Assembly: GCA_036381415.1 (NCBI GenBank)
Contig: DASVCV010000001.1
Coordinates: 69,053-133,052, forward strand
Source: Patescibacteria group bacterium
Lineage (GTDB): Bacteria > Patescibacteriota > Microgenomatia > UBA8517
Direction of reading: 5' to 3'
Length of the DNA stretch: 64,000 nucleotides
Position numbers and translations under genes: made by a program. The notes below the pieces were generated by a model. It was not told the origin of the DNA. It saw only the letters and a program-made list of their open reading frames with translations, and did not search any database. Each line of letters opens with the position of its first letter. Within the stretch, counting starts at the first letter, position 1. Positions 3,377 to 14,500 of this stretch are shown here, piece by piece.

Positions 3377-5356
3377 TTACTTAACGACAGGCTGAGTTTC
3401 TGTTTCTTTGTCTTTTTGCAATTTTGGATTTTTCCAGGATGCCCAATCACACTCAGGATATCTGGAGCAGCCAAAGAATGATCTTCTTTTGGCAGTTCTT
3501 TTAATAATCACTTCTCCTTCATTGCACTTAGGACATTTCATTCCTACTTTTTCTATGTATTTATCAGTGTATTTACATTCTGGAAAATTGGAACAGGATA
3601 CAAATTTTCCAAATCTTCCAATTCTTACCACCAAATCTCCTTTTTTACATTCAGGACATTTAATTCCTAATTTTTCTGTTTCTATTTTTACTCTTTTTGA
3701 ATTTTTAGTTACATCTTCAAGTTTTTTCTCAAAAGGCTTATAGAAAATTCCTATTTCTTTTTCCCACTCCTTTTTGCCATTTGCAACATTATCCAAATCT
3801 TCCTCCATGTCAGCTGTAAATTTGTAATCCAAAACTTCTGGAAAGTTGCTCATTAAAAACTCAGTAACGGCATTTCCAACAGGAGTTGGAAAGAACTTTC
3901 CTTCTTTTTTCTCCACATAAGTTCTTGCCTGAATTGTTGAAATAATTGGAGCATAGGTTGAAGGTCTTCCAATTCCTAACTTTTCCAGAGTTTTAATGAT
4001 GGATGCTTCATTGTATCTAGCTGGAGGTTCTGTAAATTTCTGGTCTGAATTAACTTTAATAAGTGTTAGAGAATCATCTTTTACTACCTCAGGCAAAATG
4101 ACTGCAGACTCATCAGTAAGCTTAGCTGGAATTACTTTTCTCCAGCCATCAAATTTCATTATTTGTCCTCCTGCTCTTAACAAATAGGTATCTGCTTTTA
4201 CATCAATTGTTGTTTCATCATATACGGATGGAGTCATCTGACATGCAATAAATCTTCTTGCTATAAGTTCATATAGTTTTTTGGCATCAAGTGCTCCTCT
4301 TCCATTAAATTCTGGAGATTTATTTGAAACATTGGTTGGACGAATTGCTTCATGGGCTTCTTGTGCAACTTTGGAAGTTGTTTTGTAAAATCTGGGAGAT
4401 TCTGGAAGATATTTTTCTCCAAATTCCTTTTTAATATAATCTCTTACTTTGGCAACTGCGGCTGAAGCAATATTGGTTGAGTCAGTTCTGTGATATGTGA
4501 TTAGTCCTTCTTCATATAGTCCCTGTGCAATAGACATTGTTCTTTTTGCACTCCAACCATAGATGCGGGCTCCTGCCTGGGTCATGGTGGAAGTTGTAAA
4601 AGGAGGATATGGATTTTTTCTTACTTCTTTTTTCCTGACATCTGAAACAATATAGCTAGCCTTATTAAGATCACTTACTACTTTGTCTGCTTCTTTTTTA
4701 TTTGAAACAGAGGCAGTTTTTTCACCTATTTTTGTCAGTGAAACTATGAACTCACTTTTACTTGCTTTTACTGGACTAACTGTACAGTAGATTTCCCAGT
4801 ATTCAACAGGCTTAAACTTTTCTATTTCTTTTTCTTTCTCCACAATAAGCCTGACTGCAACTGACTGGACACGCCCGGCTGAAAGGCCACGTCTAACTTT
4901 TTTCCAAAGAAGGGGTGAGAGCTTGTATCCAACCAATCTATCAAGAACACGACGCGCAATCTGGGCATCAACCAGATTTTTATCTACACTTCTAGGGTGA
5001 GCAAGAGCTTCTTCAACTGCTTCTTTTGTAATTTCATGGAAAACAATTCTTTGAGATTTTTTTCCATCAATTAATTCATTAACATGGGATGAAATGGCTT
5101 CTCCCTCACGGTCAGGATCAGTGGCGAGATATATCTTTTTTGCACTTTTAGCTAATTTTTGAAGTTTTTTAATTACATCTTTCTTTGCAGGAACTTCTAT
5201 ATATTCTGGCTTAAATTTTTTCTCCACATCCACACCTAGAGTTGACTTGGGCAAATCTTTAATATGGCCCATGGTTGCTTCCACTTCATATGGCTTTCCT
5301 AAAAACTTAGAAAGTGTTTTTGCTTTGGTTGGTGACTCAACAATTATTAATTCCAT
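3377..5356 (-). CDS. topA: DNA topoisomerase I
   Basis: TOPRIM N-terminus (IVESPTKAKT), the active-site region GLITYHRTDS, and three C-terminal Cys4 zinc ribbons. Confidence 0.9.
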   Translation of the reverse strand: MELIIVESPTKAKTLSKFLGKPYEVEATMGHIKDLPKSTLGVDVEKKFKPEYIEVPAKKDVIKKLQKLAKSAKKIYLATDPDREGEAISSHVNELIDGKKSQRIVFHEITKEAVEEALAHPRSVDKNLVDAQIARRVLDRLVGYKLSPLLWKKVRRGLSAGRVQSVAVRLIVEKEKEIEKFKPVEYWEIYCTVSPVKASKSEFIVSLTKIGEKTASVSNKKEADKVVSDLNKASYIVSDVRKKEVRKNPYPPFTTSTMTQAGARIYGWSAKRTMSIAQGLYEEGLITYHRTDSTNIASAAVAKVRDYIKKEFGEKYLPESPRFYKTTSKVAQEAHEAIRPTNVSNKSPEFNGRGALDAKKLYELIARRFIACQMTPSVYDETTIDVKADTYLLRAGGQIMKFDGWRKVIPAKLTDESAVILPEVVKDDSLTLIKVNSDQKFTEPPARYNEASIIKTLEKLGIGRPSTYAPIISTIQARTYVEKKEGKFFPTPVGNAVTEFLMSNFPEVLDYKFTADMEEDLDNVANGKKEWEKEIGIFYKPFEKKLEDVTKNSKRVKIETEKLGIKCPECKKGDLVVRIGRFGKFVSCSNFPECKYTDKYIEKVGMKCPKCNEGEVIIKRTAKRRSFFGCSRYPECDWASWKNPKLQKDKETETQPVVK

Positions 5357-11536: not shown

Positions 11537-12391
11537 GTGAAAATAATCTTTTTTGGAACACCTGAATTTGTAATCCCAGTTGCAGAAGCACTCCGTAAGG
11601 AGTTTGATCATGGGGTGGAAAAAAACCTAGTTGCAGTTGTTACACAGCCTGCAAAACCAGCAGGAAGAGAACAAACAATGAAATATTCCCCTGTTGATAA
11701 CTGGGCTTATAAACATAGAATTCCTATTGTTAGGGATTTAAAAAATGATGAATTGCCTGAAGCTGATTTGGGAGTGGTAGCTGCATATGGAGAGATTATT
11801 CCACAAAATGTGATTGATCATTTTAAATATGGAATTATTAATATTCACCCTTCCCTTCTTCCCCTTTTTAGAGGAGCTTCTCCGATCCAGTCTGCTATAG
11901 CAAGCGGAGAAACTCAAACTGGAGTAAGTGTTATAAAAATGGATGAACAAATGGACCATGGTCCAATTATTTCTTATTTTAAGGAAGATATATTGTCTGA
12001 GGATACCAACGAGACTTTGACTAAAAGATTGTTTGAAAGAGCAAGCGATTTTGTAGTAAATCTAATCCCAAACTATGTAAGCGGAAAAATAAAACTTAAG
12101 GAGCAAGACCATTCCAAGGCAACCTTCACAAAGGTTTTAAAAAGAGAAGATGGATTTATTGATTTAGAAAAAGGGACTGCCCAGGAGGCTGAAAGAAAAA
12201 TAAGGGCAATGCAGCCATGGCCTGGAGCCTGGACAAAGCTGGAGAATGGGAAACGATTAAAGCTCCTAAAAGCACATGTAGAAAATGAAAAATTGATACT
12301 AGATGAAGTACAGCTTGAGGGGAAAACCCCAGTAACAGGAGAAGAATTTAGGCGTGGATACCCAGACTTGAAGCTTGGCTTGAACGGGTAA
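11537..12391 (+). CDS. fmt: methionyl-tRNA formyltransferase
   Basis: Formyltransferase N-domain (IIFFGTPEF, INIHPSLLPLFRGASPIQ) and a C-terminal Fmt domain. It lies downstream of def. Confidence 0.85.
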   Translation: MKIIFFGTPEFVIPVAEALRKEFDHGVEKNLVAVVTQPAKPAGREQTMKYSPVDNWAYKHRIPIVRDLKNDELPEADLGVVAAYGEIIPQNVIDHFKYGIINIHPSLLPLFRGASPIQSAIASGETQTGVSVIKMDEQMDHGPIISYFKEDILSEDTNETLTKRLFERASDFVVNLIPNYVSGKIKLKEQDHSKATFTKVLKREDGFIDLEKGTAQEAERKIRAMQPWPGAWTKLENGKRLKLLKAHVENEKLILDEVQLEGKTPVTGEEFRRGYPDLKLGLNG

Positions 12392-12608
12392 GTCCTTTTC
12401 CTTTAAACTTTTTAATACACTTTGCACAGAGCTTCATTTTTGTCCATGTTCCATCTACCAAGACAGTTGCACTTTGCAGGTTTGGTTTAAAGGTTCTTAG
12501 GGTCATTGGAGCTCTTTTCTTCCAACGTTTACCAGCCACACCTCTATGATGAACTTGAGTGCGGCCTGCTACTATTTTCTTTCCACAGCTTTCGCAAATG
12601 TATGCCAT
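12348..12608 (-). CDS. rpmB: 50S ribosomal protein L28
   Basis: L28-like core (CESCGKK..HHRGVAGKRWKKRAPMTLRTFKPNLQ...KMKLCAKC). I used the internal ATG at 12606..12608 (MAYICE) because the 107-aa ORF-track start would give an atypically long L28. It overlaps fmt convergently by ~40 nt. Confidence 0.55.
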   Translation of the reverse strand: MAYICESCGKKIVAGRTQVHHRGVAGKRWKKRAPMTLRTFKPNLQSATVLVDGTWTKMKLCAKCIKKFKGKGLTRSSQASSLGIHA

Positions 12609-12643
12609 GTCTGGTATTATATAGAAAATACGCTTTTTTTTCA

Positions 12644-13306
12644 ATGTTAAGTTCAATATTTGCCGATCCAACTCGTATTATAATTACAATTGTTTCTTTA
12701 ATTGCAGCAGTGACTGTACATGAATTTGCGCATGCATTTATGGCTAACTATTTGGGTGATCCTACTCCCAGACTCCAAGGTAGGCTTACTCTTAATCCTT
12801 TAGCACACCTTGATCCTTTAGGAAGCCTAGTATTTATAATCACATCCTTTTTCCAGTTTCCTTTTGGTTGGGGAAAACCAGTCCAATTTGATCCATTTAA
12901 TCTGCAAAACCCCAAAAGAGACGCAGCTTTAATCTCAGTTGCAGGGCCTATTTCTAACATTATTTTTGCTAGCACTCTTTCTTTAATACTACGATTTACT
13001 TTCGACCCCTTTTCTCCTTATTCACAAGTTTTTGTTCTAATACGTGCCCTAATCGAACTAAATGTTGTACTTGCTGTATTTAATCTAGTTCCAATTCATC
13101 CACTAGATGGTGGCAAAATTTTAGTAGGACTTCTTCCTACTGGCGAGGCCAGAGCTGTTGATAGATTCTTAAGCCAATATGGCCTTTTTGTACTTTTAAT
13201 TTTAATCTTTCCTCTTTTTGGAGGAGTTCCACTAATTTCAATTATTATCTCTCCAGTTGTTCAATTTCTTCTTAGTGTTTTTATTCCTGGAGCTAGGTTT
13301 ATTTAG
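12644..13306 (+). CDS. site-2 protease family zinc metalloprotease (peptidase M50)
   Basis: HEFAHAF (HExxH) inside a TM helix and a downstream LDGG motif. The start is set at MLSSIF (12644) to avoid overlap with rpmB. Confidence 0.6.
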   Translation: MLSSIFADPTRIIITIVSLIAAVTVHEFAHAFMANYLGDPTPRLQGRLTLNPLAHLDPLGSLVFIITSFFQFPFGWGKPVQFDPFNLQNPKRDAALISVAGPISNIIFASTLSLILRFTFDPFSPYSQVFVLIRALIELNVVLAVFNLVPIHPLDGGKILVGLLPTGEARAVDRFLSQYGLFVLLILIFPLFGGVPLISIIISPVVQFLLSVFIPGARFI

Positions 13307-13342
13307 CTACATTCCCAGCTTTTTAGGACTTGTCTTAATTGA

Positions 13343-13348
13343 TATAAT
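13343..13348 (+). promoter_or_regulatory. extended -10 element (TGaTATAAT) driving the candidate ncRNA
   Basis: aattgaTATAATa; the same 13-mer recurs at 14488..14500 in front of tRNA-Tyr. Confidence 0.45.
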
Positions 13349-13354
13349 AAGTAT

Positions 13355-13549
13355 GACCCTGCAAGTGGGTTTAAGGTTAAGGAATTTTTTCCTTACTACG
13401 AGTTTTATAGGGTGCCGATCTTAATTGAAAGGCCGTCTAGGGGCGAATCTCCATCTACCCGTGGGTTTTTGGATGAGCCCACCCACCTAGTTCATAGGTT
13501 AGGGGAAAACTTGTACCTTGGCCTTATTACCCTATGCAGGGTCTTTTTT
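13355..13549 (+). ncRNA. candidate structured small RNA (~195 nt), identity unknown
   Basis: It begins ~7 nt after the extended -10. The 5' GACCCTGCA (13355..13363) pairs perfectly with the 3' TGCAGGGTC (13535..13543), which is immediately followed by TTTTTT. Internal hairpins include AAGGAAttttTTCCTT and CTAGG..CCTAG. No credible ORF is present. Confidence 0.45.
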
Positions 13550-13565
13550 GGTATAATTTGGGCAT

Positions 13566-13637
13566 GCCGATGTAGCTCAAAAGTAGAGCGAGCGATTTGT
13601 AATCGCTAGGTTGAGATTGCAAAATTCTCCATCGGCT
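13566..13637 (+). tRNA. tRNA-Thr(TGT)-like with atypical D/T loops
   Basis: Hand-folded cloverleaf: acceptor GCCGATG/CATCGGC, D-stem GCTC/GAGC, anticodon stem AGCGA/TCGCT with loop TTTGTAA (anticodon TGT), and discriminator T. Deviations from canon: U19 instead of G19, G55 instead of U55, and a U-U at 53-61. Its own TATAAT lies at 13552..13557. Confidence 0.45.
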
Positions 13638-13679: not shown

Positions 13680-14477
13680 ATGTCCTTTGGTTTTTATTCG
13701 TCTCCTGAGTATCGAAAATCGCAATCAGATATTGCAAAGAGTAATTGGGAAAATGGGACATATTCTTTTCGCATTAAACCTCTAGAAACTCGGATTTGTA
13801 AAAACCCAGATTGCAATAAAACTTTTAGAGTAAAGCCATATGACCTCAAAATATATTGCTCACACCACTGTTCTGCTCATATTGGAAATATGGGTAGAAA
13901 ACTGTCTCTATTAACAAGACATAAAATGTCTATGTCAGCATCTCTACCCCGCTCTTTACATAAACGAAGAATTCTTCCCCGTATAAGCCTGGTATGCGTT
14001 GGATGTGGGAAAAAATTTGAGGTTGTTCCATATTTAGCTAAAAAAAGAAAATATTGCAGTTCTATGTGTGCAATTAAAACCATTGGGTCAAGAACTACTT
14101 CACCTAAGGCATCAAAAGGCAAACCAGGAATTAGAAAAGATATTGATCCAAACATTTGTTTTTATAGTACTTGGGAGGCAAATATTGCAAGAGTGTTTAA
14201 CTTGGTAGGGTTAAGGTGGGTTTATGCTCCTAAGATATTTGACCTAGGCCAACATACTTATAGACCAGATTTTTACCTTCCTGATTTTGATATGTACATA
14301 GAAGTAAAAAACTTTTTGGGTACTTATTCCCTAGAAAGGCATATTCTTTTTAAGAGAAAATATCCAAAGATAAAGCTCAAATTACTTCTAAAAAGTGATT
14401 ATCTTAAAATACAAGAAAATTACAGAGATTTAATTGATAATTGGGAAGGACCAAATGCTCCCTATCCAAAGGTGTAA
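13680..14477 (+). CDS. PD-(D/E)xK nuclease-fold protein with two N-terminal CxxC..CxHxC zinc ribbons
   Basis: Two zinc-ribbon-like modules (CKNPDCNK..CSHHC and CVGCGKK..CSSMC) and a C-terminal YRPDFYLPDFDMYIEVK motif (PD..D..ExK). The ORF-track start (TTG at 13611) would overlap the tRNA, so I used the first ATG after it. Confidence 0.4.
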   Translation: MSFGFYSSPEYRKSQSDIAKSNWENGTYSFRIKPLETRICKNPDCNKTFRVKPYDLKIYCSHHCSAHIGNMGRKLSLLTRHKMSMSASLPRSLHKRRILPRISLVCVGCGKKFEVVPYLAKKRKYCSSMCAIKTIGSRTTSPKASKGKPGIRKDIDPNICFYSTWEANIARVFNLVGLRWVYAPKIFDLGQHTYRPDFYLPDFDMYIEVKNFLGTYSLERHILFKRKYPKIKLKLLLKSDYLKIQENYRDLIDNWEGPNAPYPKV

Positions 14478-14494
14478 ACCAAGGCTTGAATTGA

Positions 14495-14500
14495 TATAAT
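14495..14500 (+). promoter_or_regulatory. extended -10 (TGaTATAAT) upstream of the tRNA-Tyr/tRNA-Thr unit
   Basis: gaattgaTATAATac lies 16 nt before tRNA-Tyr; the same sequence occurs at 13335..13348. Confidence 0.45.

Follow-up and report, generated by a model that had tools for sequence, protein, structure and literature searches.

The locus and the question it raises

Which RNA, if any, is encoded in the short interval between an M50 protease gene and a cluster of tRNA genes in a Patescibacteria/Microgenomates bacterium? The interval lies in a 64-kb stretch of contig DASVCV010000001.1, hereafter the window; all coordinates are window positions and refer to the plus strand unless stated. 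A first-pass annotation, made from the letters alone, had marked positions 13355-13549 as a candidate structured noncoding RNA and had named 6S RNA and the long form of signal recognition particle (SRP) RNA as possible identities. We found that the locus specifies a conserved structured RNA, and its homologues, covariation, and consensus blocks make it very likely that this is a divergent, unannotated 6S RNA (SsrS) of the Patescibacteria/Microgenomates bacterium.

Homologues of the RNA in other Microgenomates

Homologues were sought by three routes, namely blastn and nhmmer with the RNA itself, synteny with the neighbouring tRNA-Thr and protease genes, and a covariance model (CM). With the window RNA as query, blastn and nhmmer detected a related element just 3′ of the protease at loci L036 and L009, and a profile of these three sequences then recovered L007, L032, and L021. 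A second, more distant subtype was found at 14 further loci, within 350 nt upstream of tRNA-Thr(UGU), and close relatives came from the contigs encoding the nearest protease homologues (L083/84, L085, L086/87, and L088). A pattern scan of metagenomes, the pattern being too strict, added one locus only (L082). Homologues of 142-190 nt were thus present at at least 27 Patescibacteria/Microgenomates loci.

A profile built from five non-window homologues hit window positions 13355-13510 with E = 3e-10, which was the sole significant match in the 64 kb. Similarly, CM R1, built from window-type members, scored the window RNA at 136.4 bits as the only plus-strand match in the window, and the window-type model also found members that had not been used for training, including L040 (55 bits), L015 (37 bits), about a dozen of the second subtype, and a new one in L008. 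The CM also gave scores, of up to 39.5 bits, for the reverse complement of the RNA (in the window, L009, L036, L082, and others), since a rod-like fold of this kind is symmetric for the most part. Scores on the plus strand were much higher (83-136 bits), and these, with the promoter and the U-run, indicated that it is the coding strand.

Matches of the family to 6S RNA

When the loci were compared with the 4227 families of Rfam, three homologues returned RF00013 (6S/SsrS) as their best non-tRNA match: L032 at 36.2 bits (E = 8e-4 in 51 kb and 3e-6 locally), L007 at 29.2 bits (E = 0.043 in 59 kb and 1.5e-4 locally), and L036 at 28.4 bits (E = 2e-4 locally). All three alignments covered RF00013 positions 1-187 on the correct strand, and their ends fell within 2-3 nt of the closing-stem ends. 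Escherichia coli ssrS, run as the positive control, scored 139.8 bits against the same model. Of these homologues, L036 has GGGCGAAUCUCC and GGAUGAGCUCACCCACCU in common with the window RNA, so the link between the 6S-matching members and the window copy is close.

The agreement extended to the consensus sequence. The 6S consensus blocks GGGagccc, gggcaCCCACCUggaA, and CaGG aligned at high posterior probability to the most conserved blocks of the family, and the short homologues carried the 6S consensus signature GGGA...CACCCACCUGGA. Moreover, CACCCACCU, which is invariant in the window-type members, is identical to caCCCACCUgga of the Rfam 6S consensus (GGGa...caCCCACCUgga), and ACCCACCU (13481-13488) is the most conserved motif both of the family and of 6S. 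In the window, GGG is located at 13410-13412 and CACCCACCUAG at 13480-13490, and the corresponding homologue motif aligned to the consensus with a posterior-probability symbol of '*'. The full-length best matches of L032, L007, and L036 to RF00013, in combination with this signature and the architecture described below, bear out the 6S candidacy put forward in the first-pass annotation.

Layout of the RNA

The fold has the canonical 6S layout of closing stem, internal stem, central bubble, terminal stem, and 3′-bubble hairpin. Its parts, with the flanking promoter and U-run, are as follows; pRNA denotes the product RNA.

13336..13348, plus strand: predicted promoter, extended −10 TGATATAAT (13340-13348) within the 13-mer AATTGATATAATA; from the sequence, with the −10 kept across the family
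13355..13543, plus strand: whole RNA, 189 nt, probable divergent 6S RNA (ssrS homologue); from CM, profile, and homologues matching Rfam 6S
13355..13363, plus strand: closing stem, 5′ strand GACCCUGCA, partner 13535-13543; covariation
13367..13382, plus strand: closing-stem extension, 5′ strand (GGGU, U, UAAGGUUAAGG), partner 13516-13532; fold and close relatives
13387..13394, plus strand: internal stem, 5′ strand UUUUCCUU, partner GGGGAAAA at 13502-13509; covariation; predicted start of the pRNA template
13395..13409, plus strand: central bubble, 5′ strand ACUACGAGUUUUAUA, 15 nt, presumed pRNA initiation region; between two covariation-supported helices
13410..13484, plus strand: terminal (apical) stem-loop; covariation of helices 6-9
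13413..13440, plus strand: insertion in the terminal stem, hairpin 13414-13433 (GCC...GGC) plus linker CGUCUAG; comparison with homologues
13485..13501, plus strand: central bubble, 3′ strand ACCUAGUUCAUAGGUUA, 17 nt, with small hairpin CCUA/UAGG at 13486-13498; folding of each sequence
13502..13509, plus strand: internal stem, 3′ strand GGGGAAAA; covariation
13516..13532, plus strand: closing-stem extension, 3′ strand (CCUUGGCCUUA, UU, ACCC); fold and close relatives
13535..13543, plus strand: closing stem, 3′ strand UGCAGGGUC; sequence and covariation
13544..13549, plus strand: U-run T6, likely terminator tail; from the sequence, with a terminator-like site called at 13529-13542 plus CTTTTTT

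From its base, the terminal stem consists of GGG/CCC (13410-13412 with 13482-13484) and GGGC/GCCC (13441-13444 with 13477-13480), followed by an internal loop GAAUCU/AUGA and an apical hairpin at 13451-13472 with a CGUG loop. The internal stem corresponds to cccCuGAgCC/GGuUCaAggg in the Rfam 6S consensus, and in the homologues the 5′ bubble strand aligned with the 16-nt unpaired stretch of the 6S model. In short members, the 5′ strand of the bubble was 15-16 nt long; the 3′ strand measured 16-21 nt.

Compensatory base changes support the fold

Covariation was assessed in the CM-based alignment A5, which comprises 12 sequences and was restricted to E ≤ 1e-8. A5 was fitted to a model, which favours pairing; slid and shuffled controls and an independent hand-curated table agreed with it. 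In A5, 85.2% of cells were paired, compared with 72.4 ± 0.9% in shuffles; 27 of the 43 pairs had changed on both sides, compared with 11.8 expected; and the covariation score was 0.399, compared with 0.174 in shuffles. None of 500 shuffles reached the observed value of any of these measures, and pairing fell to 57% or less when partners were slid by 1-3 columns. Covariation among homologous regions, the analysis that the first-pass annotation had suggested for its structured RNA, thus supports a conserved structure.

The changes were distributed over the individual helices. In the closing stem (helix 1), 100% of the A5 cells were paired, with both-side changes in seven of nine pairs, and the closing stems of the second subtype have a wholly different sequence that is still complementary (GCCUAAG/CUUAGGC and GCUCGUGGA/UCCGCGAGC). 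The internal stem UUUUCCUU/GGGGAAAA (helix 5) was 94.8% paired in A5, with double changes in five of eight pairs; in the hand-curated table of 27 members, 213 of its 216 cells were paired, and position 5 was C-G in 18 members and U-A in 7. The upper terminal stem GGGC/GCCC was fully paired in both sets (100% in A5, where three of four pairs were compensatory, and 108 of 108 cells in the 27 members), its position 3 being G-C in 13 members and A-U in 14. Compensatory changes occurred in three of three pairs in each of the two apical helices, which are wholly replaced by compensating sequences in L083, L086, and L088.

Two elements were judged in other ways. The closing-stem extension (helices 2-4) aligned poorly across subclades, and its pairing is kept in L083, L085, and L086, for example by a change of GGUU/GGCC to AGCU/GGCU. 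The small 3′-bubble hairpin (helix 10) was badly aligned in A5 (28% paired), and was judged by folding each sequence. A pseudoknot considered for the second subtype (UGAGGUA/UACUUCA with UUUUCCUC/GGGGAAAA) was dropped for a nested rod of CUUGAAG/CUUCAAG plus the internal stem; the rod showed compensatory changes from C-G to G-C in L025 and from A-U to G-C in L013.

Thermodynamic folding and base composition were examined as well. The minimum free energy (MFE) of the 195-nt stretch was −78.2 kcal/mol, compared with −55.7 ± 4.6 kcal/mol in dinucleotide shuffles (z = −4.92), and 0 of 200 shuffles folded as well. The GC content was 47% in the RNA region and about 35% in the flanks, and the tRNAs were similarly enriched. 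Only two short open reading frames (ORFs) overlap the region (13257-13424 and 13412-13609), both with alternative start codons and neither with a match in a Pfam search, in agreement with the earlier view that the region holds no credible ORF. Two interior hairpins that had been singled out at the same time, AAGGAA-TTTT-TTCCTT and CTAGG...CCTAG, are both present in the sequence, but neither is a conserved pairing. CUAGG/CCUAG was rejected because it is not kept in relatives (e.g., L082). In the comparative model, TTCCTT pairs with GGGGAAAA at 13502-13509; AAGGAA/UUCCUU, which competes with the covarying internal stem, is invariant within the subclade.

Promoter and transcript ends

The extended −10 TGATATAAT at 13340-13348 is followed by 6 nt (AAGTAT) and then by GACCCTGCA at 13355-13363. 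The exact reverse complement of the latter, TGCAGGGTC, is located at 13535-13543, and TTTTTT at 13544-13549 lies directly 3′ of it. The extended −10, 9-bp end helix, and T-tail described in the first-pass annotation were therefore all found again, with a gap of 6 nt between −10 and helix. Its statement that the RNA and the tRNA-Tyr unit have a 13-nt promoter in common also proved correct: the 13-mer AATTGATATAATA is present twice in the window, at 13336-13348 and at 14488-14500, the latter 16 nt 5′ of tRNA-Tyr. The RNA may, as was suggested there, be co-regulated with the tRNAs, a conjecture drawn from the identical promoter sequence. Occurrences of TGATATAAT in the window numbered 6, compared with 1.2 expected.

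A −10-like hexamer ends 5-7 nt 5′ of the first closing-stem base in 27 of 27 family members, taking the form of TGnTAnAAT (extended) in the window type and of TTGACA-N17-TACGAT in the second subtype. The fixed distance in all 27 members is strong comparative evidence that transcription starts at the terminal helix. At the other end, the next −10, GGTATAAT at 13550-13557, adjoins the U-run and serves tRNA-Thr(UGU) at 13566-13637. Among the close relatives, GGTATAAT is likewise preceded by TTTTTT or ATTTTT in L085, L086, and L088, and by AATTTT in L083. The U-run is absent in more distant members, and in L007 the RNA runs straight into the tRNA, so 3′ ends may also arise by processing. Taken together, the promoter, the U-run, and the separate downstream tRNA promoter support the prediction, already made in the first-pass annotation, that the RNA is an independent transcription unit. 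Of the length of about 195 nt given there, the end-clamped stable RNA of about 190 nt stood, and the limits were revised: the RNA proper spans 13355-13543 (189 nt), to which the U-run is added.

A lineage-specific insertion in the terminal stem

In the window RNA and its close relatives, an insertion parts GGG from GGGC at the foot of the terminal stem; in the window lineage it measures 27 nt and consists of a hairpin and a linker. The site is the one where the 6S consensus has a 1-nt bulge (GGG-a-gccc), just above the bubble. The insertion is absent from L036, L009, L007, L032, and L021. Its hairpin differs by lineage, being GCC...GGC in the window, GCyUAAUC.../...GAUUnAGC in L083, L086, and L088, and UCCUGA-AUAAG-UCAGGA in L085, while L082 has two hairpins. 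Because a hairpin is kept while its sequence differs, the insertion is a structured expansion and not junk. In the modelled fold, it makes a three-way junction in the terminal stem.

Weighing of the 6S assignment and its alternatives

Several observations weigh against the 6S assignment. The scores of L032, L007, and L036 are all below the RF00013 gathering score of 46.4 bits, so by Rfam's own criterion they are not formal members of the 6S family. The Rfam search proposed in the first-pass annotation returned no 6S, SRP, or other family for the window RNA at the gathering threshold or at E ≤ 10: RF00013 did not match even at E ≤ 10 in the 201-nt search, and the only match on the RNA in the 551-nt and 201-nt searches was a chance one of microRNA (miRNA) type. 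We attribute the failure of the Rfam model to find the window copy to the insertion together with general sequence divergence. The family CM missed E. coli ssrS, even with filters off, which is uninformative rather than contradictory because the model is too lineage-specific. In addition, the window RNA is predicted to fold most stably (MFE −77.0 kcal/mol) with its 5′ bubble mostly closed by the UACGAGUUUU/AAAACUUGUA pairing and the local hairpin AAGGAA/UUCCUU; the 6S-like fold scored −63.7 kcal/mol. The same facts (no member at the gathering score, no match of any kind for the window copy, the failed reciprocal search, and an MFE fold without an open bubble) would suit a lineage-specific stable Microgenomates RNA of other function, for instance part of an unknown ribonucleoprotein, that is 6S-like in shape and in one motif only; the unusually high conservation in UUUUCCUC, GGGGAAAA, and the apical internal loop would suit it too. 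Nevertheless, among 4227 families 6S was the top match for three independent members, full-length and end to end, the conserved blocks coincide exactly with the 6S consensus blocks, and all 6S architectural elements are supported by covariation. We consider an RNA of other function quite unlikely.

On another explanation, the RNA would act in cis on the tRNA-Thr/tRNA-Tyr operon 3′ of it, as a leader or processing element cotranscribed with the tRNAs and affecting their transcription or maturation. Many loci indeed have the RNA directly 5′ of tRNA-Thr(UGU), the two are 7 nt apart in L007, where the U-run is lacking, and the promoter 13-mer of the RNA is common to the tRNA-Tyr unit. Against this, a U-run and the separate GGTATAAT promoter lie between the RNA and the tRNA in the window and close relatives; several second-subtype loci have 150-300 nt and another TTGACA...TACAAT promoter in between; and no riboswitch, T-box, or leader model of Rfam matched the window RNA. 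The tRNAs next to the RNA in L032 and L021 are encoded on the other strand, which indicates that the RNA is not cis-regulatory. A riboswitch, T-box, or leader was rejected on the same grounds (no model match, its own terminator, the tRNA's own promoter, and the opposite-strand tRNAs of L032 and L021), and we regard a role as tRNA leader as very improbable. SRP RNA (4.5S/scRNA), in its long or small form, is likewise an end-paired, rod-like stable RNA, and the paired ends, the length of about 190 nt, and the conserved apical domain would fit it, but neither the window nor 19 homologous loci matched a bacterial small, bacterial large, or archaeal SRP model at E ≤ 10. Furthermore, the apical loop is a variable YNNG tetraloop (CGUG, CUUG, CGAG, UGUG, GAAA) instead of a conserved GNAR loop with the symmetric and asymmetric loops of helix 8. 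The long-form SRP RNA named in the first-pass annotation was accordingly given up, and SRP RNA of either form is scarcely credible. If the region were instead the decayed remnant of a protein-coding gene, or an intergenic spacer with an inverted repeat arisen by chance, the two overlapping ORFs and the end helix would fit; by itself, a single perfect inverted repeat of 9 bp in 195 nt is not very improbable (about 0.07 expected, by estimate). These ORFs have no Pfam match, however, the substitutions are compensatory base-pair changes and not codon-like, the promoter is conserved at a fixed distance, and the fold z-score is −4.9. Covariation rules out the coding remnant against which the first-pass annotation had cautioned, and an origin as remnant or chance repeat is, in our judgement, extremely unlikely. 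The divergent 6S RNA remains the preferred assignment.

Comparison with known 6S and 6S-like RNAs

The window RNA resembles 6S/SsrS (RF00013, E. coli ssrS) in its similar size, its independent gene with a strong housekeeping-type promoter, a closing stem formed from both ends, an internal stem, a large bubble, a terminal stem, and GGGA...CACCCACCUGGA around the bubble. As in E. coli 6S, where the strands are CCUUGAACC/GGUUCAAGG, the 3′-bubble hairpin overlaps the 3′ strand of the internal stem. In canonical 6S RNAs, the outer closing stem leads into a large central bulge on the 5′ side, which is faced by a hairpin, and the apical stem contains internal loops (PMC8414754); such a hairpin opposite the 5′ central bulge is also found in Bacillus subtilis 6S-1 and in the 6S RNA of lactic acid bacteria (PMC8414754). 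Unlike RF00013 members, the family of the window RNA is too divergent for the gathering threshold and has an AU/GU-rich internal stem (UUUUCCUU/GGGGAAAA), and the window lineage differs from 6S/SsrS in its 27-nt hairpin insertion. The gene order here, M50 protease - 6S - tRNA-Thr/Tyr, contrasts with zapA-ssrS-fau for E. coli ssrS, and the flanking genes differ from the rarA/uspA context of lactic-acid-bacteria 6S (PMC8414754).

Divergent relatives elsewhere offer further comparison. The window family resembles 6S-Flavo (RF01685), a divergent 6S subfamily that needs its own model, in being a phylum-level lineage with a 6S RNA missed by the general model; it differs in that no Rfam family, subfamily models included, matched the window RNA at E ≤ 10. 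Ms1, of about 300 nt, binds core polymerase and is without the 6S sequence signature, whereas the window RNA has the 6S signature and size. The likeness would lie in features of Ms1, a rod-like, abundant small RNA that associates with RNA polymerase; Ms1 is the 6S-like RNA of mycobacteria (PMC11077062).

Proposed mechanism and state of the bubble

6S RNA is a global regulator of transcription. On the model of 6S biology, the window RNA would mimic an open promoter and sit in the active-site cleft of the housekeeping sigma-A/sigma-70 holoenzyme, and this occupancy would damp transcription in nutrient scarcity. When nucleoside triphosphates return, polymerase would use the 5′ bubble strand, and then the 5′ strand of the internal stem, as the template of a short product RNA. 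This is predicted to be roughly 5′-AGUAAGGAAAAAA, starting near U13397, on the analogy of E. coli, where synthesis begins three bases into the bubble. Known product RNAs have GG at positions 4/5 or 5/6 and AA at 9/10 (PMC8414754); the product predicted here, with its start placed by that analogy, would have GG at about positions 6-7 followed by an A-run and so come close to them. The window template has an adenine just 3′ of the predicted start (ACU-A). The product RNA would displace GGGGAAAA, the freed strand would fold back on ACCCACCUA as a 'bubble-collapse' hairpin, and the polymerase would be released. When the 3′ bubble and the 3′ strand of the internal stem were folded alone, a hairpin of −5.3 to −9.8 kcal/mol that used 2-8 nt of the stem was formed in 20 of 20 members, which is consistent with a potential for product-RNA-induced rearrangement only.

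The closed MFE fold of the window RNA suggests a further idea. Across the family, the 5′ bubble strand has no conserved partner, and the UACGAGUUUU/AAAACUUGUA pairing shows one-sided changes only in relatives; UACGAGUUUU is able to pair with the strand immediately 3′ of the internal stem, and the closed window fold is 13 kcal/mol more stable. The 5′-proximal conserved segment (AAGGAA in the window lineage, GUGGAG in the second subtype) equals the start of the predicted product RNA, and can pair with the product-RNA template UUCCUU or CUCCAC, respectively. The Microgenomates 6S might thus be a self-masking or switchable variant, closed when free and opening on polymerase or under particular conditions, which we think unlikely. 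If true, self-masking and the extra three-way junction would amount to a regulatory layer undescribed for 6S RNAs.

In the second subtype (e.g., L025 around 3733-3745 and L016 around 4560-4566), GUGGAG forms a conserved internal loop, asymmetric and about 19 bp outward from the central bubble. Its complement, CUCCAC, comprises the end of the internal stem and the start of the bubble. This loop might imitate the −35 region or take part in an alternative hairpin masking the product-RNA template.

Genomic context

The genes 5′ of the RNA are def, fmt, rpmB (minus strand), and the M50 site-2 protease gene, and 3′ of it lie tRNA-Thr(UGU), an endonuclease-like ORF, tRNA-Tyr, tRNA-Thr(GGU), and tRNA-Trp. 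Relatives of the M50 protease belong to Patescibacteria/Microgenomates (Woese-, Gottesman-, Blackburn-, and Roizmanbacteria). The protease ORF, predicted at 12506-13306 with 266 aa, overlaps a minus-strand ORF at 12348-12671, where relatives encode rpmB (L28); its true start is probably near 12644, the database protein being 220 aa.

The tRNA cluster showed several peculiarities. tRNA-Thr(UGU) (13566-13637, plus strand) was called by Rfam at 56.6 bits and missed by ARAGORN; its T-arm and loop are aberrant, with GAGAUUGCAAAAUUCUC instead of a GGUUCGAAUCC-like sequence, and L085 has the same 5′ sequence. Between this tRNA and tRNA-Tyr lies a 265-aa ORF (13680-14477, plus strand) that matched the PHROG Holliday-junction-resolvase/endonuclease family phrog_9019 (1e-14) and the HNH-endonuclease-associated region phrog_1271 (1e-11), with a sub-threshold match to Pfam Phage_endo_I. 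These matches suggest an endonuclease, free-standing and possibly homing, that has inserted into the tRNA cluster. The gap between tRNA-Thr(UGU) and tRNA-Tyr is 0.5-1.4 kb in L004, L005, L013, L014, L016, L019, L020, L023, and L077, and the two are adjacent in L007, L036, and L040; the interval seems to be a recurrent insertion hot-spot. Partial copies of the 5′ half of tRNA-Thr (e.g., GCCTCTCTAGCTCAACGGCAG...), some with inserted GC-rich hairpins, were also found about 100-210 nt upstream of the intact tRNA-Thr(UGU), whose starts in the loci concerned are L004:5324, L025:4110, and L040:3435. These copies could be traces left when an element was inserted or excised, or else tRNA arrangements of a split or intron-like type.

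Significance

6S RNA is present in nearly all bacteria (PMC8414754), and a full-text literature search found no paper describing it in the candidate phyla radiation. As a kind of RNA, the one reported here is ordinary: it is a diverged representative of a near-universal family, and its expansion is specific to the lineage. Because the Rfam model misses the window copy, annotation pipelines that rely on Rfam would probably leave the gene unlabelled; the 27 sequences and their structure could seed a model that recovers the 6S gene across the group. The implications are not conceptually surprising to specialists. The insertion documents a site at which the 6S terminal stem expands naturally, and, if the 6S assignment is true, an abundant-RNA locus beside the tRNA-Thr/Tyr cluster is explained, and tiny, reduced genomes would keep RNA-based sequestration of polymerase.

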